Assembly: GCA_041389025.1 (NCBI GenBank)
Contig: JAWKSP010000001.1
Location: forward strand, 2-64,001
Length of the DNA: 64,000 bases
Direction: 5' to 3'
DNA from: Minisyncoccota bacterium
Lineage (GTDB): Bacteria > Patescibacteriota > Minisyncoccia > Phycocordibacterales > UBA918
The stretch's first letter is position 1. Every line of letters starts with the position of its first letter. Positions 1,270 to 57,789 of the stretch are shown piece by piece. The notes under the pieces were generated by a model. The model was not told the origin of the DNA and did not search any database. It saw nothing but the letters and a program-made list of their open reading frames with translations. The position numbers and the translations under genes were made by a program.

Positions 1270-4200
1270 TTAATTTTCAAGTGGTGGTATATCTTCATTA
1301 TTTTCTTTTAATTCATCTAACTTTTCCTTCCCTCCTTCCTCTTTTACTTCTACTTCTTTTTCTGACTCTATTTTTGGACTTTCCTCTTTTACTTCTATAT
1401 TTTCTATATTATTTATTTCTTCATCAACCTCATTCTTACTGATAGGAATATTGTCCTTTCCTTGTCCGGTATCAATTTTGTTTTGTCCTACATCACTATC
1501 TTGTGTCGGACTTTTTTTATTAGTATCTACTTCTAAGGTGGAAGTCGATTCACTTTCCTTAACTTCTATTTCTGGATTTTCAACCATACCCTCACCGATA
1601 TAGTTGTCAGTGACATTACTTGTACTACTGGTACTACTGGAATTATTTATATCTGTACCAACCTCATCACCATCCACTACTTCTTCATCTACATTTTCTA
1701 TGTAATCATCTTCCTTTTTATTATCATTATTACCAACTTCTTTATCTTCTGTTTTTTGATCAACTGATTCACTATCACCAGAAGACTTGTTTGTTTCTAC
1801 CGTACCATTATCCTGTGACTGGCTTTGTTCTAATAATTTTCTTAAATCATCACCATCCACACACACTCCATCCACACACAACTCATCTTTAACTTCTACC
1901 TTATCTGCTTTAAGTTTTAAAACTGACAATACGCCGTCAACAAAATTATTTGCCAATTGTACCAGTCTCTCCCAAACTGTTTCCTCAGATACACCAACCG
2001 TACTACTAGCACTAGCTTTTAGACCATCAATAACTGCCAACTGAATGTCATCTATATATCGATGTCTTATATCAACAAAAACAATCGCCTGCCCAACATT
2101 AACTATTTGTCCGTTTTCAATTACAACTGTCTGACTTGATTTTTTAGCTAGTTGCGCCAACGCTTCTAACTCATCTTCATACAATACTATAGCTTCTGTT
2201 TCTAAGTCTTCATTTTCATAATCAGAGTGGACACATTCTGCCTCATCAAAATTGCCGCCGCCGCTGTTGTAGCAACCATCATTTTGTTTTGGATCATTTT
2301 GTTTTTGTGGCACAAATACTGAATCAATTAGATCATCACCAAACTGATTTATATAGGTTTTAGAGTAAGCTTTAGTTTCATCAAAGTCTTCCAACGCCAC
2401 ACCAATAATACGTCCGGTAGAAGTAGCTTTCATCGCCACTCCAGGAACAGAAGAAAGCATAAGTTCATCACCAGCCTTAATTTCTCCATTTTCGTTGGAG
2501 AGTTTTATTGGTACACGACCAGATAAAGCCACTGGATAACCAGTCTCACCTTTGTTTAAAGACCGATCATCAAAACCAAGTAAGAGCCCTGGTTTAGTTG
2601 AGACTACTCCGATAATTTTATTTTTGTTATCACTATCAGCTCTACCGATAGACAACCCACCTTTAGTGTAAATAACATCACCTGGCTCAAGTATCTCCTT
2701 AGAAAAATACATTTCTGCCAAGTCAGAGTTGCCGGTATGATATGAAACAGCTGAAATCCGTCCGGTAGTGGAAGCATTACAGGAACCATCATTATCAACA
2801 CAAATACCCCCATAACCAACCTGAATACCGGCGTTTTGAGTAGTGGTTCCATTACCAATAGTAAGCATACCGTAAGGATCAACGGTAAACATTGAGGTAC
2901 CGGCGTTTTGTAGATCAATAAACTTAGAAGCGGTAGTAGAAGAAAATGAACCGCCACTGTTACCAAAATTCATCAATAAACCGGTGCCGGTAAAAGCTGA
3001 TGTGTCTTGGAATAATTTTAATAAAGCAGCACTGGTAATAGTGGATGAGTAACCACGAATCGCATTTCCTTGTGTACTTCCTCCTGTTTCAGCAAATACA
3101 CCGGCTGGTTCATAAGAACCTCCCGCGTCCCCAGAAGTTACTCCACGCACACCAAAAGTACGAGCAAAGCCGGACAAAGCAGTATTCTCACCAAGAGTAT
3201 TTGTCCCTTCGTCAGTTTGCACCTCAAGACCCCTAACAATATTTCCATAACTTGTACTATCATTGAGCCTAAGCATACTACCCACCATAGTAGTAGTAGC
3301 CGTGTTAGTGGCATATATATATGAACGATTAGCGTACTGAATTGCACTGGCAGTATTGTTGGTAAAGCTAAAATACTGATCAAGACCAGCAACCCCAGCT
3401 TCAGAGTAATTCAATTTTTCAATTGCTAAACGCGCCTCTGGTGTAGTGGTACCAATTCCAATGTTGCCACTTGATAAGGTAGTACCAGTACCATCTATTC
3501 CAGTACCGAAGATTAGGTTGCCGATATTTAGTTGGTTTGAACCGGTAGTGGAAGCAATATCTACGTCGTAACCGATGACGATGTTGTTAGCGCCGGTGGT
3601 TAGGTTGTCGGCGGCTTGATAACCAAGAAAGATATTGTTGGAAGCTCCGGTTTGTGCAGCATAGCCGGCGCGGTAACCGAGAGCGGTGTTGTTGACGGCT
3701 TGGAAGATACTTCCTCCATAGAAAGATTCGGCTCCGACTAAAACTGATGAGGTGGATTGTATATAAAGACCGGTTGAATAACCGATCATTTCGTTGTAAT
3801 TGCCGGTGTTGTTGTACCCAGAAAGACGACCTATAAAATTATTAGACGTACCGGTATTGTTATACCCAGCGCTTTGCCCATAAATATTATTACTATCTCC
3901 AGTATTGTTTGCTCCAGCACTGGCGCCAAAGATATTATTGTTGGCACCAGTATTGTTGGTACCAGCAAAATATCCAAATATATTGTTTGATAAACCAGTA
4001 TTATTCAACCCAGCTGAAGCTCCGATATAATTATTATAATCAGCATCGGTAGTAGAAGCATAACGACCAGCTTCATAACCAATCGCCACATTTACTAAGG
4101 TTTGGTTATTAAAGGTTGCACCAGCATTTTGACCAAACAAAATAGACCCGTTAGTACTAGAAGCGTAGAGGTAATTAGTACCACCAAAAGCTAAGTATGA

Positions 4201-6123
4201 TTGAGAGCCTAATCCTAAGTTGGTACCATCAAAAGTAAGGTTTGAAGAATCAGTCACACCAGTACCTCCACTATTAGTAAACAACAACCGGTTAGCAGTG
4301 TATGAAGAAATAGTGTCAGTGAGTCCAAGGAAAGTACCGTCTCCCAGACCTAGTCCGGAAGTCGAGATCCAGTCGGTGCCGGTGCCAGTACTGGAGAGGA
4401 TTTGACCTGCGGTGCCGGAGGCGTTGGTAGAGTCAAAGATAGCTCCGGTAATAAAAGTATCTCCAACAACTGTAAGTTTTGAAGATGGTGTAGTAGTACC
4501 AATTCCAATATTGCCACTTGATAAGGTAGTTCCGGTACCATCAATACCGGTACCGAAGATTAGGTTGCCGATATTTAGTTGGTTTGAACCGGTAGTGGAA
4601 GCAATATCTACGTCGTAACCGATGATAATGTTGTTAGCGCCGGTGGTTAGGTTGTCGGCGGCTCGGTAGCCAAGAAGGATATTGTTGGAAGCTCCGGTTT
4701 GTGCGGCATAGCCGGCGCTGTAACCGAGAGCGGTGTTGTTGACGGCTTGGAAGATTGTCGTACCAGCTCCACCACGGAAGGCTTGACCTCCGATGACAAC
4801 TGATGAAGTAGCTTGGAGGTTAAAACCAGTTTGGTAACCAATCATTTCGTTGTAATTGCCGGTATTATTAAGACCAGCCATATAACCAAACAGATTGTTA
4901 TTGATACCAGAATTATAAAAACCGGCACTTCTACCAATTATATTATTATAAGAACCCGTGTTGTTATAGCCAGCATATTGACCTATAAAATTGTTGCCAC
5001 TAAATAAAGTAGTGGAAGAAGCATACCTTCCTGCCTCAAAACCTAAAGCCACGTTATAGGTAGTGTTAGAGTCAAAACTAGCTCCAGCATTTTCTCCAAA
5101 GACTATAGAGTCATTAGTGGAAGAAGCATAAAGATAACGAGTGCCATTCCAAGCAATACCAGTAGTGGTACCAAGACCGAAATTTGTACCATCGAAAGTT
5201 AATGCTTCATCATCAGTTACTCCATTGGCTCCACTATTAGTAAACAACAACCGGTTAGCAGTGTATGAAGAAATAGTGTCAGTGAGTCCAAGGAAAGTAC
5301 CGTCTCCCAGACCTAGTCCGGAAGTCGAGATCCAGTCGGTGCCGGTGCCAGTACTGGAGAGGATTTGACCTGCGGTGCCGGAGGCGTTGCTACTATCTGC
5401 TAAAGTGCCAGCTATAGCTGCGTTGCCAGTAATAGTTAAATTACCATCAAGGTAAGAGTTTCCAACTACCGTAAGTTTATTATCTGGTGTGGTAGTAGCA
5501 ATTCCCACATTTCCATTATTTAATATAGTAAACATCTCGGTTGCACCACTAAACAAACTTATGAGTTTACCGGCACCGTTTTGAATTATTGTAAGTATGG
5601 CAGAACTACTAGTTGCTTCCATTATATCGCTATCGTCAGATCGTAAAAAAGAAGTAGTAGCTAAACCAGCAAAAGTATTTGCTGTCTCGGCCACAAATGC
5701 TGCTGGCACCGCACCCAAAACTTTTCTTGGACTCATTTCTCCATCCCAAGCCGGAGTACTAGTTCCACCAATTTCTACTCCCAAATAAAGTGTTTGATCA
5801 AAATCTAATCCATCCAAAGAAGATACTTCTCCAAGCATTACTGAAAACAAACCATTAGTAACCGAGACTTGATTCCCTCCCGTTCTTGCCTCAGACCAAA
5901 TAGCAGTTGAAGTTGCAGCAGTGCTTGAAGATAAGAGCCAGAAGTTCATATTGTAATCACCATCTGCCACTGCCACACCAGAAGAATCGGTAAGTTTTCC
6001 TTGATAATTTATTTGTTTATTAAATTGGGCTTGAGTGGAAAAAGTAGAAAATATAAAAACCAAAGTCAGCACAAATGTGCTTATGATTGAAAATTTTATT
6101 TTGTTTTTACGCAAAATTTTCAT
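1270..6123 (-). CDS. Giant (1617 aa) secreted repeat protein with a fibre/adhesin-like beta-helical repeat region and an acidic low-complexity C-terminal tail.
   Basis: N-terminal signal peptide MKILRKNKIKFSIISTFVLTLVFIFSTFSTQAQ. A long region of ~14-residue Gly/Asn/Thr repeats (NN-x-I-G-x-x-AG-x-NNTG) resembles YadA-head or tail-fibre repeats. Two large internal protein repeats are present (..SNASGTAGQILSSTGTGTDWISTSGLGLGDGTFLGLTDTISSYTANRLLFTNSG.. appears twice). The C-terminal ~220 aa are D/E/K-rich low complexity. Confidence 0.75.
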   Translation of the reverse strand: MKILRKNKIKFSIISTFVLTLVFIFSTFSTQAQFNKQINYQGKLTDSSGVAVADGDYNMNFWLLSSSTAATSTAIWSEARTGGNQVSVTNGLFSVMLGEVSSLDGLDFDQTLYLGVEIGGTSTPAWDGEMSPRKVLGAVPAAFVAETANTFAGLATTSFLRSDDSDIMEATSSSAILTIIQNGAGKLISLFSGATEMFTILNNGNVGIATTTPDNKLTVVGNSYLDGNLTITGNAAIAGTLADSSNASGTAGQILSSTGTGTDWISTSGLGLGDGTFLGLTDTISSYTANRLLFTNSGANGVTDDEALTFDGTNFGLGTTTGIAWNGTRYLYASSTNDSIVFGENAGASFDSNTTYNVALGFEAGRYASSTTLFSGNNFIGQYAGYNNTGSYNNIIGRSAGFYNSGINNNLFGYMAGLNNTGNYNEMIGYQTGFNLQATSSVVIGGQAFRGGAGTTIFQAVNNTALGYSAGYAAQTGASNNILLGYRAADNLTTGANNIIIGYDVDIASTTGSNQLNIGNLIFGTGIDGTGTTLSSGNIGIGTTTPSSKLTVVGDTFITGAIFDSTNASGTAGQILSSTGTGTDWISTSGLGLGDGTFLGLTDTISSYTANRLLFTNSGGTGVTDSSNLTFDGTNLGLGSQSYLAFGGTNYLYASSTNGSILFGQNAGATFNNQTLVNVAIGYEAGRYASTTDADYNNYIGASAGLNNTGLSNNIFGYFAGTNNTGANNNIFGASAGANNTGDSNNIYGQSAGYNNTGTSNNFIGRLSGYNNTGNYNEMIGYSTGLYIQSTSSVLVGAESFYGGSIFQAVNNTALGYRAGYAAQTGASNNIFLGYQAADNLTTGANNIVIGYDVDIASTTGSNQLNIGNLIFGTGIDGTGTTLSSGNIGIGTTTPEARLAIEKLNYSEAGVAGLDQYFSFTNNTASAIQYANRSYIYATNTATTTMVGSMLRLNDSTSYGNIVRGLEVQTDEGTNTLGENTALSGFARTFGVRGVTSGDAGGSYEPAGVFAETGGSTQGNAIRGYSSTITSAALLKLFQDTSAFTGTGLLMNFGNSGGSFSSTTASKFIDLQNAGTSMFTVDPYGMLTIGNGTTTQNAGIQVGYGGICVDNDGSCNASTTGRISAVSYHTGNSDLAEMYFSKEILEPGDVIYTKGGLSIGRADSDNKNKIIGVVSTKPGLLLGFDDRSLNKGETGYPVALSGRVPIKLSNENGEIKAGDELMLSSVPGVAMKATSTGRIIGVALEDFDETKAYSKTYINQFGDDLIDSVFVPQKQNDPKQNDGCYNSGGGNFDEAECVHSDYENEDLETEAIVLYEDELEALAQLAKKSSQTVVIENGQIVNVGQAIVFVDIRHRYIDDIQLAVIDGLKASASSTVGVSEETVWERLVQLANNFVDGVLSVLKLKADKVEVKDELCVDGVCVDGDDLRKLLEQSQSQDNGTVETNKSSGDSESVDQKTEDKEVGNNDNKKEDDYIENVDEEVVDGDEVGTDINNSSSTSSTSNVTDNYIGEGMVENPEIEVKESESTSTLEVDTNKKSPTQDSDVGQNKIDTGQGKDNIPISKNEVDEEINNIENIEVKEESPKIESEKEVEVKEEGGKEKLDELKENNEDIPPLEN
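3440..3708. repeat. Intragenic DNA repeat copy 1 (~269 nt, ~93% identical to 4487..4756).
   Basis: Direct comparison: the ggtgtagtggtaccaattccaatgttgccacttgataagg...gacggcttggaagat block recurs 1047 nt downstream. Confidence 0.8.
4225..4427. repeat. Intragenic DNA repeat copy 1 (core 4268..4427 is 100% identical to 5231..5390).
   Basis: A 160-nt exact repeat (ccactattagtaaacaacaaccgg...gcggtgccggaggcgtt). The plus-strand ORF-track artefacts 4220..4405 and 5141..5368 share an identical C-terminus, which confirms it. Confidence 0.85.
4487..4756. repeat. Intragenic DNA repeat copy 2 of 3440..3708.
   Basis: Same as above. It encodes the duplicated GIGTTTP..NLTTGANNI[IV]IGYDVDIASTTGSNQLNIGN protein segment. 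Confidence 0.8.
5188..5390. repeat. Intragenic DNA repeat copy 2 of 4225..4427.
   Basis: See above. Offset 963 nt. Confidence 0.85.
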
Positions 6124-15441: not shown

Positions 15442-17694
15442 CTATTCTTCTTTATTAGGTACACAACCGATTTGTGGATCATTACCAGCCTCAATATTAC
15501 CAATAAAACAATTAGCGGTTTTAGCAAAAGTTGGCTTAGCTTCAATACTACCTCGTAAAGTTTCAACTGCTTTCTCTAACTCGCCATTTTGATAATATAA
15601 GAAAGAAAGCGATACCCAATTCTGTTCATTCTCTGGATCGTTTTTGGTTCTAGCTTCATAAGCTCTAACCAAGAAATCACTATCTCCAGCTTTGTTTGCA
15701 GCGCTTAATAAGAAATCATTACCGGCTAGATTTTGTACATAAGAATCTTCTTTCAACAATTCTTTAGCCTCTTCGTTCTTGTTTTGCATATAAAGAACGG
15801 CAGCATAAAAACCTCTAGCTTCAGTATTCCTGTGATCCAACTCAAAAGCTTCTTTAAAATATTCTTCAGCCTGCTCAACATTACCTTGACTATAAGCAAT
15901 AATGGCTTGTTGAGATATGATTGATTGTTTATTTGGTGACAATTCCCTAGCCGTCTCCATTTGCTCCTTAGCCTTAGATAAGTCACCAACAGCTCGATAG
16001 AAACTTGAGAAGAAAACATGTATGCGAGCATCACCAGGCTTCCACTCTACCAACCGCTTCAATTCTTCCTCTGCAGTCTTTATATAATCCTGTCTAATTT
16101 CTTCAGGAACGTTCGTATTAGATGCTATATTCATAGCCTGTTGAGCCAACTGTTCAGTTATCTCTTGGTAAGCAAATGAATCACGGCTAAGTGCCCTCTT
16201 AAAAGCTTCTAACCTAATTTCTGGATCATTAGAACCATAACCATCAATGATGTCTGACGCAGCATTCATACCAGGAAGATGTAAAGTATAAACAAGAACA
16301 ATAGCAAGTACCAAAGCCACTGGTGCTGCAAATTGATTAATTAAACTTTTCTCAACCTTAACATTTTCAATAGTTTCCACAGGCTTAGCCACCCGACTGT
16401 GTATCAAGGCTAAAATAACTGCAAAGAAAATGTAACTGATAATATTATCGAATACCACCAGATTGTGAGTAAAATATCCAGCTAAAATACCGACCAACAC
16501 AGCTCTTTCCAATACAGTAAATGACTCGTCTTCTTTATTGCGTAAAGGAACTACTACTAGATAATATAAACAAGTTGCAAACACACTCATGTAAGCAATG
16601 AAACCAAGAATACCACCAGTTGTAAGCCAGTCCATTACTATGTTGTGTGAACGATCAAACCATTGCTCTTGATCAAATAAGAAAGGATCGTACTGCTCGT
16701 TAAATATATAATTGAAATTGCTCTGACCCCAGCCAAGAATCGGACGTTCCTTCACCCCTTCAAAGGCCATACCCCAAATAGTCATACGGACCTTTAAGTC
16801 TTCGGCTAAGTTAATATTAGCAATTCGAGATAAGTTAGGATTGTCTTGTATAAAAGCCGAGTCTTTACCTAAAACAAAACCCCCCACCCCAATTGCTAAT
16901 AAAATAAAGAAACCAACCGCTACTTTTCTTAACTCTTTATACCGAGCTCCAAAAATAGCTATATAAGCAACCATAATAGTAATACCGACCCCTAAACCTA
17001 AAGTTGTACCTCTTGTACCAGTCTCAACTAAAGTAAAAATAAACATTAGAGTTAAAAGTCCATATATCACACGGTATAAATTCACCTTACTTTCAACCAA
17101 CATCCAAAGGGCAATAAAGATATGAAAGAACATGTAAATAGCCAAATAAGCAGCGTTACCCAAGTAACTTTCAATACGATTCTTGCCAAAATTAACATCA
17201 CCCAATTGAGCAAGACCATTTAAGGCTACGATAAAAGCTACTACTAAAGTAGTGTGTAAAAAATAACTCCAGAGTTTTTTGGTAGTAAGCACACTACCCA
17301 GCACCAAAACATAAAGAAAGACGTGAACAAGCGTGATATATCCATCCATCCGTTCAAAATTACTCCAAAAACTAGATGGTGGATGTTGTCCAAATAAATT
17401 AGCAAAAAACATTACGACCAAGAGTGAAATTAAACTCAACAGTACCCACGAAAATTTTGGACGATATCTAACTTCAGACAAAGCCAAAACTACCCACGCC
17501 AAAAACGACATTTCAACTAAAATGCGAAAAGCAAAATTTTTACCGGTAATATAAGGAAAGAAATAATCATTAGCGACATAAAGCGTCAAAAAAGGTACAG
17601 CAAAAAGACCGCCGTACACCACTACTTTTAAAAAACTATTCATATGGCAGTCAATATAACATATTTCAAAATTAGTACCCCTATAGACAAACAA
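15442..17694 (-). CDS. O-antigen ligase (Wzy_C) family polytopic membrane protein with C-terminal TPR-repeat domain. Candidate O-antigen ligase, polymerase or O-oligosaccharyltransferase.
   Basis: ~12 TM helices in the first ~470 aa, followed by a ~270-aa soluble helical-repeat (TPR-like) region. Alternative start MNSFLK at 17643. Confidence 0.65.
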   Translation of the reverse strand: MFVYRGTNFEICYIDCHMNSFLKVVVYGGLFAVPFLTLYVANDYFFPYITGKNFAFRILVEMSFLAWVVLALSEVRYRPKFSWVLLSLISLLVVMFFANLFGQHPPSSFWSNFERMDGYITLVHVFLYVLVLGSVLTTKKLWSYFLHTTLVVAFIVALNGLAQLGDVNFGKNRIESYLGNAAYLAIYMFFHIFIALWMLVESKVNLYRVIYGLLTLMFIFTLVETGTRGTTLGLGVGITIMVAYIAIFGARYKELRKVAVGFFILLAIGVGGFVLGKDSAFIQDNPNLSRIANINLAEDLKVRMTIWGMAFEGVKERPILGWGQSNFNYIFNEQYDPFLFDQEQWFDRSHNIVMDWLTTGGILGFIAYMSVFATCLYYLVVVPLRNKEDESFTVLERAVLVGILAGYFTHNLVVFDNIISYIFFAVILALIHSRVAKPVETIENVKVEKSLINQFAAPVALVLAIVLVYTLHLPGMNAASDIIDGYGSNDPEIRLEAFKRALSRDSFAYQEITEQLAQQAMNIASNTNVPEEIRQDYIKTAEEELKRLVEWKPGDARIHVFFSSFYRAVGDLSKAKEQMETARELSPNKQSIISQQAIIAYSQGNVEQAEEYFKEAFELDHRNTEARGFYAAVLYMQNKNEEAKELLKEDSYVQNLAGNDFLLSAANKAGDSDFLVRAYEARTKNDPENEQNWVSLSFLYYQNGELEKAVETLRGSIEAKPTFAKTANCFIGNIEAGNDPQIGCVPNKEE

Positions 17695-17786: not shown

Positions 17787-19034
17787 ATGAAAAATCACAT
17801 TGTTGGATGGTTAAGACAAACTGAAAAATATACCCGAACCGATATGGTGTACTTGGTCGGTCAAAGTGGCTGGCTTATTGTAGGCCAAGCTGTGGCATTA
17901 ATCAGTTCCCTTACACTAGCTTGGGTATTTGCTAATTTTGTTGAACCTAGTGACTACGGTATATATAGATATGTATTAACATTAGCAATCATTGCCTCTG
18001 TTACTGCACTTACTGGTTTTGGAGTTGCTATAGCTAGAACGGTATCACAAAATTACGAGGTAAATTTAAACAAAATTATGAAAATCAAAATCAAATTTGG
18101 TTTTCTCGGTACAGTAGCTTTTCTCGGTATATCTTTATATTACCTTTGGCAAGAGAATACCATGCTAGCCACTATTTTTGCCACTATAGCTATCTGGATT
18201 CCATTCTATGAATCTCTATCGGATTACCAGTTTGTGTTACAAGGAAAAAAAGACTTCAAACTACAAACCGTCATTCGAACCTTACAGAGAACTTTTGTTA
18301 CCGTTATTGTAATTTTAACTATTTTTATAACAAAAAATATTATTGTAGTTACTTTTACTTATTTTCTAGCCACTACCTTGTCACAATATTTATCTAATCG
18401 TTATACACAAAAAAAATATTTCACCGGAAACGATACAAAAACTCCATACAAAACCATGACTACTTACGCTAAACATTTATCAGTACAAAATATATTTTTC
18501 ATAGGAGTTACACAACTTGATAAAGTTCTTTTGTTTAAATTTCTTGGACCAACTAAATTAGCTATCTATCTATTTGCTATCTCTATCCCAAACGAAATAC
18601 AAGGTATTCTAGGCAACATAAATTCAGTCGCTTTTCCAAAATTAGTAGATCGTGATAGTCGACACTTCAAGATCGCTCTTCTTAAAAAAATCGGAGTTTT
18701 TACTCTAATTCTTCTAATCCCAGTTGCTTTGTATTGGTTAGCTGCTCCTTATATATTTAAATTACTGTTCCCAGTTTATGTAGATTCGATACTTATATCA
18801 CAATTATTCGTCGGCACTATCCTCTTTATTCCGATTAGTTTAATTTGGCATTATTTCTATGCCGTAGAAGATAAGAAAGTTTTATGGTTTGGAACATTCG
18901 TTGGTCCCTTGACTCTTATTTTTAGTATTATCATTCTTGTCCCTATACTAGATTTAGTTGGAGCAGTTCTAGCCGTATACATAAGAGGTTTTGTAGACTT
19001 ACTCTTTGGACTGTATTTCTTTTTGAGAAAATGA
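17787..19034 (+). CDS. Polysaccharide/oligosaccharide flippase (Wzx/MOP superfamily-like), 12-14 TM
   Basis: 415 aa, highly hydrophobic, flippase-like architecture. Divergently transcribed from the Wzy_C-TPR gene. Confidence 0.65.
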   Translation: MKNHIVGWLRQTEKYTRTDMVYLVGQSGWLIVGQAVALISSLTLAWVFANFVEPSDYGIYRYVLTLAIIASVTALTGFGVAIARTVSQNYEVNLNKIMKIKIKFGFLGTVAFLGISLYYLWQENTMLATIFATIAIWIPFYESLSDYQFVLQGKKDFKLQTVIRTLQRTFVTVIVILTIFITKNIIVVTFTYFLATTLSQYLSNRYTQKKYFTGNDTKTPYKTMTTYAKHLSVQNIFFIGVTQLDKVLLFKFLGPTKLAIYLFAISIPNEIQGILGNINSVAFPKLVDRDSRHFKIALLKKIGVFTLILLIPVALYWLAAPYIFKLLFPVYVDSILISQLFVGTILFIPISLIWHYFYAVEDKKVLWFGTFVGPLTLIFSIIILVPILDLVGAVLAVYIRGFVDLLFGLYFFLRK

Positions 19035-19096
19035 AAAGCGGCAAAACATTATAGTCATACCGCTTTTAAAGGCTATTTATTAATAGCCGAATAAAA

Positions 19097-19894
19097 CTAA
19101 TTATTAATAAAGAACTCGTGCTCGGCCAGCCACAAGCAATAATCTCGAACTTCTTCCAGTGAGGCCACATCATCTGTGTAGGCTAAAACTTTTGCAAACT
19201 CACTGGTATGAAAATCTACCTGACTAATTAAACAATCCTTAGAAGAATCTTGGCATGAAATCATCATCAATTCTTTAAACGGACTTATGGCGTGCGGCAC
19301 AGGTATAATTGGAATCTTAACACCTCGCTTGATAAATGCTTTCAGTTGCGTACAAAACGCTCGTGGAAACAGATGTCCAGGAGCTGCCATCAAAGCAATT
19401 GCTTCAATATTATGCTCGACTACCATATCAGTGACCCATTTGGCCTGCTCACCAGTGTGTCTTGCGTGTACTTGAGTGAAAAACTGTGTAGCACCACTCA
19501 AGTCAGCTGCCGCTATAGCATTACCAATCTTATCGACTGAATAATAAGCTCGTGTTCGACCCTTATACCCACCATCAGAACCAGAGTAGGCCAAATGATG
19601 ACCAGCCACCAAGAAATGTGGACTCTCCAACTCATACACAAGATCTATCGCGTCAGATAAGGGATCTTCCGGAATAATTCCCGGATACAAAACTGTAGAT
19701 ATACAACCTTGCGGCGCCGGTCTGTATAAAGAAGCGAGTCCAGACACTGCCATGGTAAGCTTCTGTAAATAATCAATTTCTCGACCAATCTGATCAGCAA
19801 CCGTCTGGTCACCAATCAGTTTTGTAAACTTACCATCAGGACCAAAAATACTGTCTTTGTAAGGTACAACAACATAAGGTTTTTCTGCTGCCAT
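19097..19894 (-). CDS. Hypothetical protein of probable foreign origin. Weak, speculative resemblance of an AGHHLAYSG segment to MEMO/LigB-type PHAGY-YSG motifs.
   Basis: Local GC ~48% versus ~30% for its surroundings. Strong SD taggagggaactta-ATG, which native genes in this window lack. No confident family assignment. Confidence 0.5.
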   Translation of the reverse strand: MAAEKPYVVVPYKDSIFGPDGKFTKLIGDQTVADQIGREIDYLQKLTMAVSGLASLYRPAPQGCISTVLYPGIIPEDPLSDAIDLVYELESPHFLVAGHHLAYSGSDGGYKGRTRAYYSVDKIGNAIAAADLSGATQFFTQVHARHTGEQAKWVTDMVVEHNIEAIALMAAPGHLFPRAFCTQLKAFIKRGVKIPIIPVPHAISPFKELMMISCQDSSKDCLISQVDFHTSEFAKVLAYTDDVASLEEVRDYCLWLAEHEFFINN

Positions 19895-19991
19895 TTAAGT
19901 TCCCTCCTATACATAAATTAATTTAAATGCAGGTTAAAAAATATTGCCCCATGAAAATACCACTTAAGTACCTGTTAGTCAATATTTTCGT

Positions 19992-20888
19992 CCCTGAATC
20001 CATAAACTCAAATAATCTTATTCAAAGCCATGATCTGATAACTCAGTAACACTCGTACATAATGAAGAGCATACCCTGATACAGAACGAGGAAAAGAAGT
20101 AACCAAGTGTAGATGCTCTTTAAGGTAATCAAACACACATTCAACTTTGGAACGTAGGTTAAGTAACCGTAGCTGCTGTGAGGTAGCGATTTTTTTCTTT
20201 TGACTTGGCCACGGTGGAGCGATAATGGCGGTACCATAATTTTCATAAACAATCCTGCTACGACACAATGTTCATTTAAAATATCAGTCATGACCTGAGC
20301 ATCGTGGATGTTAGCTAGTGTGAAAGCCATTCCACACAGTCTACCATCCAAAGCAACACTGGCATGAAGTTTAAATCCATAGTGCCAACCTTGCCAATTC
20401 TTGCCAAAATCAGCTATATTCTTAGCCACTTTATACCTATCTACTCGATGGTTCTTGCAGACCGGTAACATAGTGGAGTCTATTAGTCTGATAGCTTCGG
20501 TGGTACCAAGTAGTTGGTTTAACAGGTAATACATTTGTGGTAATGCCTTATGGCAGTGATTAACAAAGGCTGAGTATTTGGGTAATTTAAAGTCATTGTT
20601 GTGATAAACCAGAATAGTGTCATGAATATCCTTCAGGGTTTTTTGTTTAAGAACAATAGTGTTCCAAATCAATATGGTTATCACTTCAGATTCGGATAAC
20701 AAAGCCGGTCTACCGGTAACATAGGGCTTGGTATCAATCTGTTGGTCTACCCAATAATATAAATCTACTATATGATGTGAATACAAAAAGAGCATAGTAC
20801 GTTATTTATGTTGGTATATAGATATCGTACGTGCTCTTTTTGTGTTTTAAGGGTTTAATTGGGGATACTTGAGTTTATGGATTCAGGG
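19992..20888 (-). mobile_element. IS982-family insertion sequence (~0.9 kb) with 20-bp terminal inverted repeats and a 6-bp target-site duplication.
   Basis: Left IR CCCTGAATCCATAAACTCAA (19992-20011) and right IR TTGAGTTTATGGATTCAGGG (20869-20888) are perfect reverse complements. A flanking direct repeat TTTCGT lies at 19986-19991 and 20889-20894. The internal ORF has IS982 transposase motifs. Confidence 0.75.
20008..20795 (-). pseudogene. IS982-family DDE transposase, frameshifted. The 250-aa and 86-aa ORF-track entries are two frames of one gene.
   Basis: N-terminal frame has IDSTMLPVCKNHRVDRYKVAKNIADFGKNWQGWHYGFKLHASVALDGRL. C-terminal frame has VECVFDYLKEHLHLVTSFPRSVSGYALHYVRVLLSYQI. 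The frames overlap near a T7 homopolymer at about 20200-20210. Confidence 0.7.
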
Positions 20889-20925
20889 TTTCGTTGGTTG
20901 TATTTTAAAAGTTTACTTTTGTAAA

Positions 20926-20969
20926 AAACAAAAGCGCACTTAGCCAACATATCTGGCTAAGTGCTTATT
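20926..20969 (-). terminator. Terminator hairpin downstream of 20970..21440.
   Basis: gcacttagcca-acatatc-tggctaagtgc (11-bp stem), followed on the minus strand by ttttgtttttt. Confidence 0.55.
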
Positions 20970-21440
20970 TTAAGTTTTTCTTGGAGATTGGTTTAACCGA
21001 ATTAACTCTTCTCTCATTCGACTCAAAATATTTTCAACTAATTGTTTATCTCTTGAGTCGTTAAATCTGAAGTCAGCTGATTCTGGCTTTCTTTCTAAAT
21101 CACTTAAATCAAAAATTGCAACAAAAAACTCTTCAGTAGACAAAAGACCTGTAGACTTTTTAGCATAGATTCCTCTACCACTTACATTTGAATAAGACCC
21201 CCCAGCAATAATACGCTCACGAATAACTAAAGGATCTTTGTAATGTGGTTGCAAGACTACAATCATCTCTTTCAAGTATTTATCAAGAACCTTTTTTATT
21301 CTCTTATTATCATCATCAATATAAGCTAGTAAATGTGCTCCACAATATAAAACTACAAATACTAACAATAGTAATAATAATGAATGTGAAACTGAAAATA
21401 AAAATTCTATTACTGGATTTGACATTATCCCTGAAAACAT
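20970..21440 (-). CDS. Hypothetical membrane-anchored protein
   Basis: 156 aa, N-terminal TM LLLLLLVFVVLYCGAHLLAYI. Confidence 0.4.
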   Translation of the reverse strand: MFSGIMSNPVIEFLFSVSHSLLLLLLVFVVLYCGAHLLAYIDDDNKRIKKVLDKYLKEMIVVLQPHYKDPLVIRERIIAGGSYSNVSGRGIYAKKSTGLLSTEEFFVAIFDLSDLERKPESADFRFNDSRDKQLVENILSRMREELIRLNQSPRKT

Positions 21441-21515
21441 ATTTATCCCCTAACAAAAATATAAAAATCTGCTACTATTGAAGCATAAAAGCTTTATTAT
21501 GTCAATATCTAAATT

Positions 21516-22340
21516 TTATCCTCCCTTAATCCGACTTAAAGCCAAATCAAAAAATTGTCCAGTGTCCCACACTGTATAACCTTCCCTAACTAGGTCCAGA
21601 GTCATAACCTTAGAAGTTGGGCCAAGTGAGGTCATGATCAAAGTATCAGCTTTTGGTAGAGTCGAGACCACATTCCTCACCTCTTTCATTAACTGGTCAT
21701 ATTGTAGCCAGGCATCACTCGAAGGACCTTCGACATAAAAAGTTTTTAAGCCGAGCTGTTGGTCTTGAAAGCGAGCTGTGTTACTAGCTACTATCACCAA
21801 ATTCTTAGTCTTTAGGTGATCGATTAAATTATCGTAAGGCAGACCTTTGTTATAGCGACCATGAAAAGTTAGAGCGCTACCGTAGACCTGATCTTTGTTT
21901 ATGTAATCCTTTAGATAAATCTTGCTGTTGGTCCAAAAATGATGTTGCTCCCCGATTCCCTCGGCTTCAAATCCGGCTTTGGTTTTTAGAATAAATTCCG
22001 GGTTAAAACAAACCAGTAAATCTGGGTGGTCGGAAGACAGAACTTCTTTTAGACGCTCGGCCAAAAGCGGATGGTAAGTCTGGTGCCAGTTATCAAAGTA
22101 AAGTCCAACCCCGAGGAGCATATCAAAAACTTCATCACCAAACCGCACGATCGACTTGTTGTTATTTAAAATCTCATTTACTGTCTCGTCGTAGTTAAGA
22201 AACCTGACATCTTTATAATGATCAATATAAGAATCAGCGACTTGATTGTAATACAAATACTTCTTTACAAACGGCACCAAAGCTGGCGGATGGTCAATAA
22301 ATTTCCGCAACCGATTTTTCCATATATATAAAGTCGACAT
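21516..22340 (-). CDS. Hypothetical protein, paralogue of 26940..27782. Tentatively a DUF1792/GT-D-like glycosyltransferase.
   Basis: Shares the S-I-[IV]-R-F-G-D-(G)-E-V motif (NKSIVRFGDEVFDML) with 26940..27782 (GRSIIRFGDGEVYLM). Confidence 0.4.
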   Translation of the reverse strand: MSTLYIWKNRLRKFIDHPPALVPFVKKYLYYNQVADSYIDHYKDVRFLNYDETVNEILNNNKSIVRFGDEVFDMLLGVGLYFDNWHQTYHPLLAERLKEVLSSDHPDLLVCFNPEFILKTKAGFEAEGIGEQHHFWTNSKIYLKDYINKDQVYGSALTFHGRYNKGLPYDNLIDHLKTKNLVIVASNTARFQDQQLGLKTFYVEGPSSDAWLQYDQLMKEVRNVVSTLPKADTLIMTSLGPTSKVMTLDLVREGYTVWDTGQFFDLALSRIKGG

Positions 22341-22372: not shown

Positions 22373-23164
22373 ATGACCAACAAAGCTACTGAGTTCTCCA
22401 TCATACTACCGACTTATAATCGACCACTTTTGATAAGTAATAGTATTAACAGTGTGATAAAACAAGAATATCAAAATTGGCATCTATACGTAGTGATTGA
22501 TGACATCAATGAGGAATACGCTGTAGCCAAAGAAACCTATGCCGACGAATCAAGGATCACTTTTATTCAAAACGCTGAAAACGTTGGTAAAAATAAATCA
22601 TTAAACCGCGCTCTTGACCAACTAAAGAAGATAAACTTTCTAGGCTATATAGTCTACCTTGATGACGATGATTGGCTATCACCACACTGCCTGACTTATT
22701 TTGTTAGTGCCATAAAAAACGACCCTTACCAAAACTGGTTCGTATCAGAAAGAGTAAATAGTAAGACCAATCTATCCTTTACTACTAATAGAACCGGTAA
22801 AGATGTAATCAGCTACCAATACGACATGTTGCTCCGACGAAAATTTACCGGCGATACCACCCAATGTCTAAACTTCCAAACCATATCCAACGTACGCTTC
22901 CCCACCACTATCAAAAACGCTGAGGAGTGGGTATATTACGCAGAAATATCAACCAAACAAAAAACCTTCAAATACCTACCGGTTGCCGGCACTTACTCTG
23001 AAGGTTATGCGGAAGACGGTCTAACTGATGTGTACCATAGTCAGAACGAGCGCTGGAAAAACAATAAAGCAGTCATAATAGAAATCTGGCAGCGAAAGAT
23101 GTTTTCTCCTTTCATCATATTTTATTTACTTGGACGTCTTGTTAAATCACTAATATCTAGATAA
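22373..23164 (+). CDS. Family 2 glycosyltransferase
   Basis: FSIILPTYNRPLLISNSINSVIKQEYQNWHLYVVIDD...YLDDDD (GT-A N-terminal motif and DxD). Confidence 0.7.
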   Translation: MTNKATEFSIILPTYNRPLLISNSINSVIKQEYQNWHLYVVIDDINEEYAVAKETYADESRITFIQNAENVGKNKSLNRALDQLKKINFLGYIVYLDDDDWLSPHCLTYFVSAIKNDPYQNWFVSERVNSKTNLSFTTNRTGKDVISYQYDMLLRRKFTGDTTQCLNFQTISNVRFPTTIKNAEEWVYYAEISTKQKTFKYLPVAGTYSEGYAEDGLTDVYHSQNERWKNNKAVIIEIWQRKMFSPFIIFYLLGRLVKSLISR

Positions 23165-54030: not shown

Positions 54031-54173
54031 GGTTAAGTTCTCACACGGTTTTCAAATAATCCAGCCAACCCTCAAGTATCGTAAACATCGACTTGTTCCT
54101 CCCTATGGTCGGAAACGGAAAAAATGCTACACGCATTTTTTAGCTCGCGCGGACGCAAAAGTCCTCCCCTTAG

Positions 54174-54247
54174 TCCGCGCTCTAGGATTCGAACCTAGGA
54201 CCTTTCGAGTATCAGTCGAATGCTCTAGCCAACTGAGCTAAGCGCGG
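54174..54247 (-). tRNA. tRNA-Ile (anticodon GAU). CCA not encoded.
   Basis: Manual fold: acceptor CCGCGCU/AGCGCGG, D-arm GCUC-AGUUGGCUA-GAGC, anticodon arm UUCGA-CUGAUAC-UCGAA, variable loop AGGUC, T-arm CUAGG-UUCGAAU-CCUAG, discriminator A. Confidence 0.85.
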
Positions 54248-54705: not shown

Positions 54706-55071
54706 ATGAAACAATACAAAATACTGCTAGCTCTGCTTGCTTTGCCACAATTAGCCTTTGCTCAAGCCTCCCTGCAAACTTTCATCCCAAACCTAGTTAA
54801 ATTTGTCAGTAATGTTTTAATTCCTTTCCTTTTTGCGATTGCCTTTTTTATTTTTGTTTTTGCTGCTTTTAAATACTTTGTTTTAGAAAGTGCCAATGAA
54901 GAAGGTCGCGAGAAAGCCAAAAACCTTGCCCTTTACACCATACTAGCCTTCCTTTTCTTAATAATATTTTGGGGATTAATAAATGTTATCGCTAATTCTG
55001 TTGGTCTACAAGGAACCGACCAGCCCTGTCCTGATTATATAATGACAATAGATCCAACCAAATGCCCATAA
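54706..55071 (+). CDS. Small secreted/membrane protein with signal peptide plus two TM helices (VirB2/TrbC-pilin-like topology, speculative)
   Basis: MKQYKILLALLALPQLAFAQA signal sequence, two hydrophobic helices, C-terminal CPDY...CP. Confidence 0.4.
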   Translation: MKQYKILLALLALPQLAFAQASLQTFIPNLVKFVSNVLIPFLFAIAFFIFVFAAFKYFVLESANEEGREKAKNLALYTILAFLFLIIFWGLINVIANSVGLQGTDQPCPDYIMTIDPTKCP

Positions 55072-55101: not shown

Positions 55102-55647
55102 TCATGTAGGTAAGTCTAGCTCTTCGCTCAACTCTTTGTATACCACTTGATTATTTTTATCTCTTTTACCTAAATAAACGTCCCATACCAACTTCTCTTC
55201 TTTAAGTATTCGAGGAAGAAAAATTCTATCCACCGGTAATAAGTTTAAATTCAAAATATCATCCGGCGCAAAAAAATGTGGTGTTCGCATTTCTTTTTTG
55301 CCTTGAGGTATTCCCTTGTACTTGATAAGAGTGAAGAAATAGACAGTCATGTCAGCTTGGCTATCCTCACTATCAGGCCAAAAGAAATTTATTTTTGCTA
55401 CCAGACACAAATCCTCTTCATACGCCCTAACCCCCGACTCCTCGAATAGTTCTCTTATAGCAGTTTGCAACAAACTTTCATTTGGTAACTTTTTACCACC
55501 ATAACCGTTCCAGACATTTGCGCTGTTTTTAAGCTGGATTCCTTGCTTGTGGATATTACTTACCTTCTGCGCCAAACAAACTCTTCCTCTTTCATCCAAT
55601 AAATAAACTACCGTGGCCAATTCTGTCTTAGCATTCATTGTATTCAT
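55102..55647 (-). CDS. NUDIX hydrolase
   Basis: Nudix box GGKKLPNESLLQTAIRELFEESGV. Confidence 0.7.
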   Translation of the reverse strand: MNTMNAKTELATVVYLLDERGRVCLAQKVSNIHKQGIQLKNSANVWNGYGGKKLPNESLLQTAIRELFEESGVRAYEEDLCLVAKINFFWPDSEDSQADMTVYFFTLIKYKGIPQGKKEMRTPHFFAPDDILNLNLLPVDRIFLPRILKEEKLVWDVYLGKRDKNNQVVYKELSEELDLPT

Positions 55648-55740: not shown

Positions 55741-57199
55741 AGACAAAACTCTCTTTTGTCTTATCCTTAAAGGTCCGGTCTTTCCCTGGGGTCTGATACC
55801 ATTTCAGAGAATTGAGTATCATCTCTCGTTGCGTGCTCAATTGATACACACAACATCGACCAATTAGCTGTCATTGCAGTTCTGTTACCAGAGTGCGACA
55901 ACGTGTCCAATTGGAATTAATCCACGACCAGCTTCCGCTAGCCGTGCCTTGTTACGACTTAGTCCTTGTTATCGAGTTTACCGTCGGCCCACGCTAGGTG
56001 GGACTTCGGGCACTCCCGACTCCCCTGACTTGACGGGCGGTGAGTACAAGGCTCGGGAACGTATTCACCGCGGCGTTGCTGATCCGCGATTACTAGCGAT
56101 TCCGGCTTCATGAGGGCGAGTTGCAGCCCTCAATCCGAACTGAGGATGGTTTTATTAGGATTTGCTCCACATTACTGTATTGCGTCCCGTTGTACTACCC
56201 ATTGTATCACGTGTGCAGCCCAAGGCATCAAGGGACATGCTGACCTGGCGTCATCCTCACCTTCCTCTCCCGTGAGGGAGCAGTCTCGTCTGACACTTAT
56301 AACAGACAACGAGGGTTGCGTTCGTTTCCCCACTTAAGGGAACAGCTCAAGCCACGAACTGACGACGGCCATGCATCACCTGCCATACACCCTCGAAGGC
56401 TTCTTCGGTTTCCCGAAGCGTGCAGTATGGTTTCTAGCCTTGGTAAGGTTCTTCGCTTAGCTACGAATTAAGCCACATGATCCACCGCTTGTGCGAGCCC
56501 CCGTCTATTCCTTTGAGTTTTAAGCTTGCGCTCGTACTACCCAGGCGGTCTGTTTAACGCGTTAGCTTCGCCACTAAGAGGGTCGATACTCCTAATAGCC
56601 AACAGACAGCGTTTAGGGCGTGGACTACTCGGGTATCTAATCCGATTCGCTACCCACGCTTTCGTGCCTCAGCGTCAAGAATGTGCCAGTAAGCTGCCTT
56701 CGCATTTGGTATTCCCCATGATATCAACGGATTTCACCCCTACACCATGAGTTCTGCTTACCTCTCACACCTTCTAGTTATACCGTTTCGAATGCGGCTG
56801 TAAGGTTGAGCCCTACAATTTAACATCCGACTAATATAACCGCCTACGCACCCTTTACGCCCAGTAAATCCGGATAATGCTCGGGGCCTCTGTATTACCG
56901 CTCCTGCTGGCACAGAGTTGGGAGCCCCTTATTCATGAGGTAACGTCAATAAACTTCCTCCCTCATAAAAGGTGTTTACGTCCCGAAGGACTTCATCCAC
57001 CACGCGGCGTCGCTCCGTCAGGCTTTCGCCCATTGCGGAAGATTCTCGACTGCAGCCTCCCGTAGGAGTATGGACCGTGTCGCAGTTCCATCGGTGGGGG
57101 TCAGGCTCTCACCTCCCCTAGCCGTCGTAGCCTTGGTAAGCCGTTACCTTACCAACAAGCTGATAGCCCGCAGGCCGTTCCAAGAGCGATAAATCTTTA

Positions 57200-57513
57200 C
57201 CCAGCCCTACTTTTTATCTTCAAGCCAACTGGTCTCAATTCTTTTTTTGAGACCTTGTATCGCACTACCATGTTGCTTAAGTTTGTTTTCACGAACTCGT
57301 GCATCACGTTCATTACGATAAGCTTCTGCGTATATCAAAATCCATTTACCTCGCTCTCTCCTAGTAGCTTTATTACTATTAGAATTATGAGAATTTAAAC
57401 GATTTCCTAAATTCTTAGTGAAACCAATATAAATCTCTTTTGTAAGTGAGTGTTGAATCAGATAAACAATAAACATTACCTTGATTGTATCAAAGATAAA
57501 AAGTAGAGCTGGG
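57200..57513 (-). other. Intervening sequence / intron-like insertion in the 16S helix-10 (V2) region, closed by a 21-bp perfect helix
   Basis: Stem strands CCCAGCTCTACTTTTTATCTT (57493-57513, rRNA sense) and AAGATAAAAAGTAGGGCTGGG (57200-57220) pair over 21 bp. They enclose 272 nt that carry an ORF. Confidence 0.7.
57207..57476 (-). CDS. GIY-YIG nuclease-domain protein (homing-endonuclease-like) encoded inside the 16S insertion
   Basis: MFIVYLIQHSLTKEIYIGFTKNLGNRLNSHN fits GIY-x10-YIG...R...H...N. AAGG lies 3 nt upstream of the ATG. Start is taken at M16 of the track ORF 57207..57521. Confidence 0.65.
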   Translation of the reverse strand: MFIVYLIQHSLTKEIYIGFTKNLGNRLNSHNSNSNKATRRERGKWILIYAEAYRNERDARVRENKLKQHGSAIQGLKKRIETSWLEDKK

Positions 57514-57789
57514 ACCATCAAGTATTATTCCGACTTTCGCCGGGTTATCCCTGACTCTTGGGTACGTACCTACGTGTTCCTACCTCGTCTGCCATGAATC
57601 TAAATTCATTCGACTTGCATGCCTCATCCACGCCGCCAGCATTCATCCTGAGCTAGGATCAAACTCTAATTGAAGACAGGTACTGAAAGAAAAAATCTTT
57701 CTGTGTATCTGCGTCTTCTGAGCAATGCGCTTGTACTATTGCGCGCTCGAAGAAGACGATTTACCTAAAGGATAAGACAAAAGAAAGCT

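Follow-up and report, generated by a model that had tools for sequence, protein, structure and literature searches.

This report concerns a 64-kb stretch of DNA from a Minisyncoccota bacterium (contig JAWKSP010000001.1; hereafter the window), in which the gene of a 265-residue hypothetical protein, here called X, lies directly beside an insertion sequence (IS) of the IS982 family. Our main finding is that the two are very probably unrelated neighbours: a native gene that is kept in synteny among relatives, and a solo, defective IS. The best explanation of the loci compared is that X is a vertically inherited member of a Wzx/Wzy-type surface-glycan cluster of a Candidatus Paceibacterota genome. 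Its product is likely to be a divergent, cytoplasmic branch, unannotated in Pfam, of the DUF218 (YdcF/ElyC/SanA) superfamily. An earlier note on the same DNA had read the region as a foreign mini-island in which X was cargo, a reading that the comparison with relatives does not bear out.

A gene of atypical base composition, preceded by a Shine-Dalgarno (SD) sequence and adjoining an IS, is easily misread as part of a mobile island, which X does not appear to be. The main value of the locus lies less in the IS than in an unannotated DUF218-like family. Hypothetical protein X would here receive its first family assignment together with a testable active-site hypothesis. The protein recurs in glycan clusters of several lineages of Parcubacteria, organisms about whose cell-surface biochemistry hardly anything is known.

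Gene X belongs to a conserved glycan cluster

The loci with an X ortholog that were compared with the window are L001 to L003 (Parcubacteria OLB19), L004 (an ENA contig), L005, L012, L014/L015, L016 and L017. A locus search with a four-sequence alignment of X among GTDB species representatives returned OLB19 only. In a word-indexed search, X had an identical counterpart, annotated as hypothetical, in a metagenome-assembled genome of Candidatus Paceibacterota (623-kb contig) and three close relatives only, and a word-indexed protein search with the 67-sequence profile described below returned four proteins only.

The cluster around X (Table 1) has the order MurB, Wzy_C-TPR protein, flippase, X, a slot of variable content, GT-D fold glycosyltransferase (GT-D), two family 2 glycosyltransferases (GT2), a Polysacc_synt_2-type dehydratase/epimerase and an RmlD-like reductase. 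This block is present in L001-L003, L004, L014/L015 and L017. The pairing of X with the flippase is kept in L001-L004, L014, L016 and L017, with L016 showing the pairing alone, and it spans proteins as distant as ~28-36% identity; in L005 and L012, X stands in sugar-nucleotide and flippase contexts. The IS is absent from all X-ortholog loci examined (L001-L005, L012, L014-L017). Relative to their counterparts in the window, the neighbouring cluster proteins show 45-88% identity and X shows 37-48%, and the loci, when ranked by the identity of X, come in the order given by its neighbours.

Table 1. Coordinates of the window features considered in this report
Feature	Coordinates	Strand	Basis or remark
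Very large open reading frame (ORF), 1617 aa, 40% GC (above average)	1270..6123	-	
Wzy_C (O-antigen ligase/polymerase-like) protein with C-terminal TPR repeats	15442..17694	-	Pfam; syntenic in L001, L014, L017
Wzx-type flippase (Polysacc_synt), convergent with X	17787..19034	+	Pfam
Gene X, 265-aa ORF	19097..19894	-	ORF list
SD-like AGGAGGG, 7 nt before the ATG of X	19902..19908	-	sequence
Predicted promoter of X, between IS and X: TTGACT, 17-nt spacer, TG-TATTTT (extended -10)	19954..19982	-	consensus scan
Target-site duplication, copy 1, TTTCGT	19986..19991	.	sequence
Defective IS982-family insertion sequence, 897 bp	19992..20888	-	inverted repeats (IRs); ends set by alignment to L006, L007; NF033520 matches
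Terminal IR, 3' end of transposase gene, X-facing side	19992..20011	.	identical in L006
Transposase C-terminal part, aa 193-272, catalytic Glu region	20008..20256	-	tblastn with P0156, frame +3, 86% identity
37-nt internal deletion junction	20256..20257	-	DNA alignment to L006, L007
Transposase N-terminal part, aa 1-180 of 274, first catalytic Asp region	20257..20795	-	tblastn with P0156, frame +1, 86% identity
IS 5' leader hairpin pairing over the transposase start codon	20775..20845	-	inverted repeat I3; RNA fold
Terminal IR, 5' end of transposase gene	20869..20888	.	IR search and alignment
Target-site duplication, copy 2, TTTCGT	20889..20894	.	sequence
Terminator-like hairpin after the 156-aa ORF	20936..20964	-	12-bp stem, T-rich tail (scan)
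156-aa ORF, one N-terminal transmembrane helix, in the variable slot between GT-D and X	20970..21440	-	ORF list; no family match
GT-D fold glycosyltransferase	21516..22340	-	Pfam; syntenic, orthologs 66-74% identical
Family 2 glycosyltransferase	22373..23164	+	Pfam; syntenic
tRNA-Ile(GAT)	54173..54247		~1.66 kb downstream of the 16S gene
ORF between 16S and tRNA-Ile(GAT)	54706..55071	+	
ORF between 16S and tRNA-Ile(GAT)	55102..55647	-	
16S rRNA gene, 1765 nt	55910..57674	-	293-nt insertion near model position 188

The signals upstream of X recur among its orthologs, in a layout composed of a terminator hairpin, TTGACA, a 16-17-nt spacer, a TA-rich -10 box, a leader, GGAGG, (C)TTAA and ATG. GGAGG or GGAGA is found upstream of the orthologs in L001, L004, L005, L012, L013, L014 and L017; a TTGACA/TTGACT box stands at matching spacing in L001 and L004, and TTGACA boxes occur in L014, L016 and L017. 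In L001 and L004, too, the promoter of X is preceded by a hairpin, analogous to that at 20936..20964. The leader of X, counted from the predicted promoter, measures ~55 nt, and a comparison of the lineages revealed no conserved RNA element in the leaders. We infer that X forms a transcription unit of its own, with a terminator-insulated sigma70-type promoter and a canonical SD. At the other end of the gene, the 62-bp convergent gap between the flippase gene and X holds two hairpins (AAAAGCGG/CCGCTTTT at 19035-19067, GGCTATT/AATAGCC at 19072-19089). The hairpins in 19035..19090, which were seen in the sequence only and not reported by the terminator scan, are probably the terminators of the flippase and X genes.

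The IS lies between the upstream terminator and the X promoter, the target duplication ending 4 nt before the -35 box, and it interrupts neither the promoter nor the SD nor the ORF of X. Very probably, the element transposed into the intergenic spacer, duplicating TTTCGT at this distance from the -35 box and leaving the gene and its signals intact; on this reading X did not arrive with it. The presence of X at the same position, with promoter and SD, in IS-free relatives argues that X is not IS cargo. The transposase gene and X are co-oriented, so that read-through from the IS is conceivable.

The base composition of X is less deviant than had been thought. The earlier note put X at ~48% GC in a ~30% context, and the measured values are 42.6% for X and 35.9% for the window, a difference of 6.7 points (GC at codon positions one to three, GC1/2/3, of 0.55/0.39/0.34). 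Among the 51 non-overlapping long ORFs of the window, on which the ORF statistics are based, X ranks third in GC (z = 1.7). Its GC3 of 0.34, compared with a mean of 0.28 (z = 1.1), is below that of GT-D (0.42) and GT2 (0.39) and inside the neighbour range of 0.24-0.42. GGAGG or AGGAG lies upstream of only 6 of the 51 ORFs (~12%), and an SD-bearing gene is therefore a minority type in the window. The AGGAGGG signal is thus real and uncommon, as had been claimed, but it fails as a sign of import, since it is kept upstream of the orthologs; on this comparison the SD of X is an ancestral property of the gene and no mark of foreign origin.

The GC excess itself can be followed across eight loci (the window, L001, L004, L005, L012, L014, L016 and L017). 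X has 0.59 GC against 0.43-0.50 for the cluster in L014, 0.57 against 0.41 in L016 and 0.54 against 0.41 in L012. L005 is the extreme, where X lies terminally on a contig of 38% GC (GC 0.59 against 0.38, GC3 0.71 against 0.29). In the window and its closest relatives the gap is 3-7 points and resides mostly in first codon positions. Judged from these loci, the modest excess is a property of the X family in every lineage examined, and no sign of IS-linked import. It could stem from amino-acid composition together with expression-linked codon bias, or from repeated exchange among lineages.

Two accounts other than vertical descent have to be weighed here. That X is foreign cargo, forming with the adjacent IS a small, recently acquired and possibly IS-mobilised island, is now very improbable. 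The GC rank of X, an SD shared by few window ORFs and a position directly beside an IS with intact ends would suit such an origin, but at least four lineages free of the IS have orthologs in syntenic position, with the same promoter and SD, the duplication brackets the IS alone, a single IS copy is present in the 64 kb, and GC3 is that of a neighbour. A composite transposon or genomic island around X is thereby not supported. To our knowledge, moreover, IS982 elements consist of one ORF without passenger genes, which also counts against an island. What does weigh against vertical inheritance is that X is the GC-richest gene of the cluster at all eight loci and the fastest-diverging one there; a gene with both properties in every lineage may still have undergone lateral exchange among related lineages. 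We accordingly leave a real but minor chance to the idea that Parcubacteria have swapped X repeatedly as a cassette, through homologous recombination within the glycan locus, in the manner of O-antigen or capsule genes. GC3 is also raised in L005, L014 and L016, X is the most divergent cluster protein (47% identity, its neighbours having 56-88%), the adjoining slot is variable in content, and X has an autonomous promoter and SD. Set against this, the identity ranking of X matches that of its neighbours, the excess in the window and nearest relatives is mainly in GC1 (0.50-0.55) and thus reflects amino-acid composition rather than codon choice, and no recombination junctions were identified. 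Exchange of this kind, if real, would not link X to the IS. Vertical inheritance within the glycan cluster, with the IS as an unrelated neighbour, is the reading that we retain.

A defective IS982-family element in a variable slot

The ends of the IS are as the earlier note had described them: an IS982-family element of 897 bp, perfect 20-bp IRs (CCCTGAATCCATAAACTCAA) and a 6-bp TTTCGT duplication were all verified in the sequence. The IRs had zero matches in dinucleotide-preserving shuffles of the window, and L007, one of the two intact IS relatives used for DNA alignment (L006 and L007), likewise shows a 6-bp duplication (AAATAA). A Pfam scan of the IS ORFs found the DDE domain. The curated IS982 model NF033520, whose cutoff is 130 bits, aligns to the 250-aa ORF over profile positions 1-149 (E = 1.6e-31) and to the 86-aa ORF over positions 171-242 (E = 4.4e-7), each broken fragment alone falling below the cutoff; the intact relatives P0156 and P0162 clear it, with 153 and 138 bits. 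The transposase has more than 1000 relatives. Within the 64-kb window no second copy of the IS was found, and a scan of the JGI metagenome collection found neither the deletion junction, looked for as an indication that the deleted variant had spread, nor the IS end.

The transposase is split over two frames, and both tblastn and DNA alignment support the pseudogene that the earlier note had named as one of two possibilities. The break does not lie near the T7 run, where the note had placed it, nor does it come from slippage or programmed frameshifting. The alignment with L006 and L007 instead reveals a clean gap of 37 nt (12 codons plus 1 nt), confined to the window copy, at 20256/20257 and 60 nt away from the run. 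Measured by tblastn with P0156, the closest intact transposase, 12 residues (VGDTIYGAKVMG) are missing at this point, and in silico return of the 37 nt of L006 gives a single 274-aa ORF in a 934-bp element. In IS4/IS5/IS982-type DDE transposases, the second catalytic Asp resides in a GD-x-x-Y motif. From general knowledge of the family, we take the Asp in the GD-x-x-Y motif of the lost segment, GD(T)xYG, to be this residue. In the window IS the transposase ORF is interrupted and the DDE triad incomplete, and since the second Asp is deleted and the frame shifted, the copy should be catalytically dead and non-autonomous. As far as its sequence tells, it is a dead element, whose movement would depend on an intact transposase provided in trans.

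It is hardly credible, by comparison, that the frame split is a homopolymer sequencing error in the T7 run or a programmed ribosomal frameshift, and that the IS is functional. A T7/A7 run does lie inside the transposase gene (20190-20196), and two overlapping transposase ORFs are present. The run, however, encodes a conserved KKK in a stretch that aligns with intact 274-aa transposases in frame and without a break, the break is 60 nt upstream of it, and a correction of its length would leave the transposase still broken. The close relatives, more than 100 of them, have a single ORF of ~274 aa, so that there is no conserved two-ORF layout. Programmed frameshifting was rejected, the junction being the 37-nt deletion and the A7 run lying 60 nt downstream of it inside in-frame homology. 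One point on the other side is that the deletion is known from the assembled sequence alone.

The IS leader folds into a hairpin of -21.9 kcal/mol (z = -8.4), the arms of which are largely kept in L006 and L007. In the predicted fold, the transposase AUG is sequestered by this stable structure. Start-codon hairpins in IS leaders are a common device against activation by read-through transcription.

With the IS982 family (NF033520; ISfinder) the element shares a DDE transposase encoded by a single gene, short terminal IRs, a 6-bp duplication and a length of ~1 kb. It departs from the family in lacking 37 nt that include the second catalytic Asp, which puts the gene out of frame and makes the copy defective; its intact form (934 bp, 274 aa) would be at the short end of the family, and the closest intact relative of its transposase, from a metagenome contig, has only 86% protein identity. 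It also resembles promoter-proximal IS insertions in polysaccharide loci in being a solo intergenic IS directly upstream of a promoter and in the orientation of the downstream gene; unlike in such cases, the -35, -10 and SD of X itself are intact, and no outward-reading or hybrid promoter is evidenced in the window. All told, the IS is an ordinary insertion of the IS982 family, now decayed and lodged in a variable intergenic slot.

The content of this slot between GT-D and X (19895..21515 in the window) differs from locus to locus. It holds a 279-aa EamA-like gene in L001 (6955-8000), a 279-aa short-chain dehydrogenase gene (adh_short) in L004 (4820-5897), nothing in L014 (7901-8000), a 128-aa opposite-strand gene in L017 (7389-8000), and in the window an unrelated 156-aa membrane ORF and the IS. 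The slot thus looks like a local hot spot of gene turnover. The 156-aa ORF had no family match in Pfam, NCBIfam, PADLOC or PHROGs. The idea that the IS had truncated a slot gene was dropped, the ORF being without similarity to the 279-aa genes of L001 and L004.

Protein X resembles the DUF218 superfamily

The family relationship emerged from the relatives of X. A profile of four X-family sequences, searched against 1.84 billion representatives with a threshold of E <= 1e-3, retrieved 252 cluster representatives, 114 of them at E <= 1e-10. When 67 aligned members were scanned individually against Pfam (E <= 0.01), 28 matched PF02698, DUF218 (best E = 7e-8), and no other family was matched by more than one member. 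Profile comparison with the E. coli DUF218 proteins ElyC, YgjQ, SanA and YdcF (sequences from NC_000913.3) pointed the same way for ElyC: hhalign gave E = 2.2e-5 and a probability of 76% over 96 columns, with three core motifs in register (AG-H with GG, T-x-x-Q-A with T-x-x-E-A, and HLPRA with HLPRA). The earlier note had called the AGHH segment of X weakly MEMO/LigB-like; this lead found no family match, and the segment corresponds to the DUF218 (S/A)G motif after a core beta-strand.

The X family has the signature P71-G72; A97-G98-x-(H/N); Q141-x-x-A-x-(H/N)-T147-x-(E/D)-Q150-A-x-W153; H174-L-x-R178-A-x-x-T182; E232-x-x-(R/K)-x-x-x-Y239; Y252. In the 67-sequence alignment, H174 and R178 are invariant (67/67 each), E232 is found in 65 of 67 sequences and T147 in 58 of 67, which makes T147, H174, R178 and E232 candidate catalytic residues. 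T147, H174 and E232 appear to mirror T125, H149 and E182 of SanA. The Thr and His of X are in register with ElyC by hhalign; the correspondence of the Glu (SEFAK with REFAA) was drawn by inspection only.

An AlphaFold2 (AF2) model made with the 67-sequence alignment reached a predicted local distance difference test score (pLDDT) of 91.9 and a predicted template-modelling score (pTM) of 0.90, whereas a first model based on four sequences had a pLDDT of 69.5, with no match of E < 1e-3 in a fold search of the PDB. In the better model, five parallel-type strands flanked by helices form an alpha/beta core, to which helices are added at both termini. In a Foldseek search against BFVD, a set of viral models, two DUF218-annotated entries were matched with probabilities of 1.00 and 0.77 and a YdcF-annotated one with 0.93; the target-normalised TM-scores of these matches are 0.47-0.61, and the YdcF model superposes with a root-mean-square deviation of 4.7 over 196 columns.

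X shares with DUF218 (YdcF, ElyC, SanA, YgjQ) a beta-strand followed by (A/S)G, T-x-(E/D)-(Q/N)-A and H-x-x-R-A motifs and a downstream conserved Glu, as well as, in its predicted model, a Rossmann/HUP-like alpha/beta core and, further, ties to envelope glycan assembly from lipid-linked precursors. Like YdcF, X is without a membrane anchor: it has no transmembrane segment (maximum 19-residue Kyte-Doolittle value of 1.11) and lacks the N-terminal anchor of the ElyC/SanA/YgjQ subtype, whose members are membrane-anchored and periplasmic whereas X would be cytoplasmic. X differs further in having Gln for the usual Asn of the T-x-E-N-A motif, in an additional helical segment near the N terminus (residues ~22-56) and a helical extension at the C terminus that bears the conserved Y239 and Y252, in its location in glycan clusters of the candidate phyla radiation (CPR) type, paired with a Wzx flippase, and in going undetected by the Pfam model.

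Several results weigh against this assignment. X alone had no match in Pfam, NCBIfam (E <= 0.1), PADLOC, PHROGs or PDB sequences, and the X-family profile found nothing among PDB sequences. The two DUF218 matches that were inspected score 17.8 and 21.8 bits, below the gathering score of 27.6 of PF02698. The hhalign comparison with YgjQ (E = 1.9e-6) has the later motifs out of register, those with SanA and YdcF were insignificant, and a MAFFT alignment of the four E. coli paralogs was too poor for profile use. Foldseek of the model of pLDDT 91.9 against the PDB gave no match with E < 1e-3 and left YdcF outside the top 50. X could therefore be a separate HUP/Rossmann-like family, superficially like DUF218 and with another role, for example nucleotidyl-transferase-like or regulatory. 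The missing direct Pfam match speaks for this, as do the weak top matches of the PDB fold search, which are generic HUP-class proteins (USP, pantothenate synthetase, the cryptochrome N-domain), and the cytidylyltransferase and NMNAT-like models among the BFVD matches. We nevertheless consider it unlikely: DUF218 is the sole recurrent family among the members, the order of the motifs and the HLPRA agreement point to ElyC, and DUF218/YdcF models stand at ranks 2, 12 and 26 of the BFVD search. HUP-class matches are moreover expected for a DUF218 relative, the fold of YdcF being adenine-nucleotide alpha-hydrolase-like (PMC12176290). A divergent, cytoplasmic DUF218 branch thus remains the likely identity of X.

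A possible role ahead of the flippase

What is known of DUF218 proteins connects them with the cell envelope. YdcF is cytosolic and binds S-adenosylmethionine. ElyC limits the synthesis of enterobacterial common antigen, and without it peptidoglycan synthesis runs short of undecaprenyl phosphate; SanA acts as a brake on peptidoglycan synthesis and requires each of T125, H149 and E182, which suggests catalysis. A substrate is known for none of the DUF218 proteins (PMC12176290). The neighbourhood of exopolysaccharide genes is another place where DUF218 domains have been noted (bioRxiv 10.1101/2025.01.14.632903).

Given the analogy with ElyC and SanA and the conserved pairing with the flippase, X is most likely an enzyme. 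Tentatively, and with some reserve, we suggest that it acts at the cytoplasmic face on a nucleotide-activated or polyprenyl-phosphate-linked glycan intermediate before flipping; it would modify this intermediate or control its flux ahead of the flippase. It counts against the proposed chemistry that it is drawn from analogy only, no biochemical activity being known for DUF218. A bolder proposal, to which we give only a slim chance, is that X represents a distinct family of cytoplasmic DUF218-like enzymes with a Thr-His-Glu/Arg site, of ~250 clusters at 50% identity and lacking a Pfam model, which would be a fixed partner of Wzx in CPR/Parcubacteria and perform a new step of precursor processing or flux control. 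Small, soluble and linked to a flippase, X might ease the biochemistry of DUF218 in comparison with the membrane-anchored ElyC and SanA.

Translation signals and rRNA genes of the window

A TAnnnT (-10-like) box ends 3-14 nt before the start codon in 25 of 50 ORFs, and SD-like motifs precede 6-7 ORFs, which suggests that leaderless or very short-leader mRNAs are widespread in the window. The 16S rRNA gene ends in the tail GGATTAATTCCAAT instead of GGATCACCTCCTTA, the anti-SD core CCUCC being replaced by AUUCC, and no canonical tail was found near the end of the gene. The genes with a canonical GGAGG, X included, would pair at -8.7 to -13.4 kcal/mol with the canonical tail and at about -4 kcal/mol with that of the window. 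A promoter, a GGAGG SD and a GC excess in a largely leaderless genome with an AUUCC tail could reflect a recurrently exchanged cassette or a special translation regime for a small set of genes. Within the window no 23S gene follows the 16S gene; tRNA-Ile(GAT) and, before it, two ORFs lie on its downstream side (Table 1), and the rRNA operon appears to be unlinked or interrupted.

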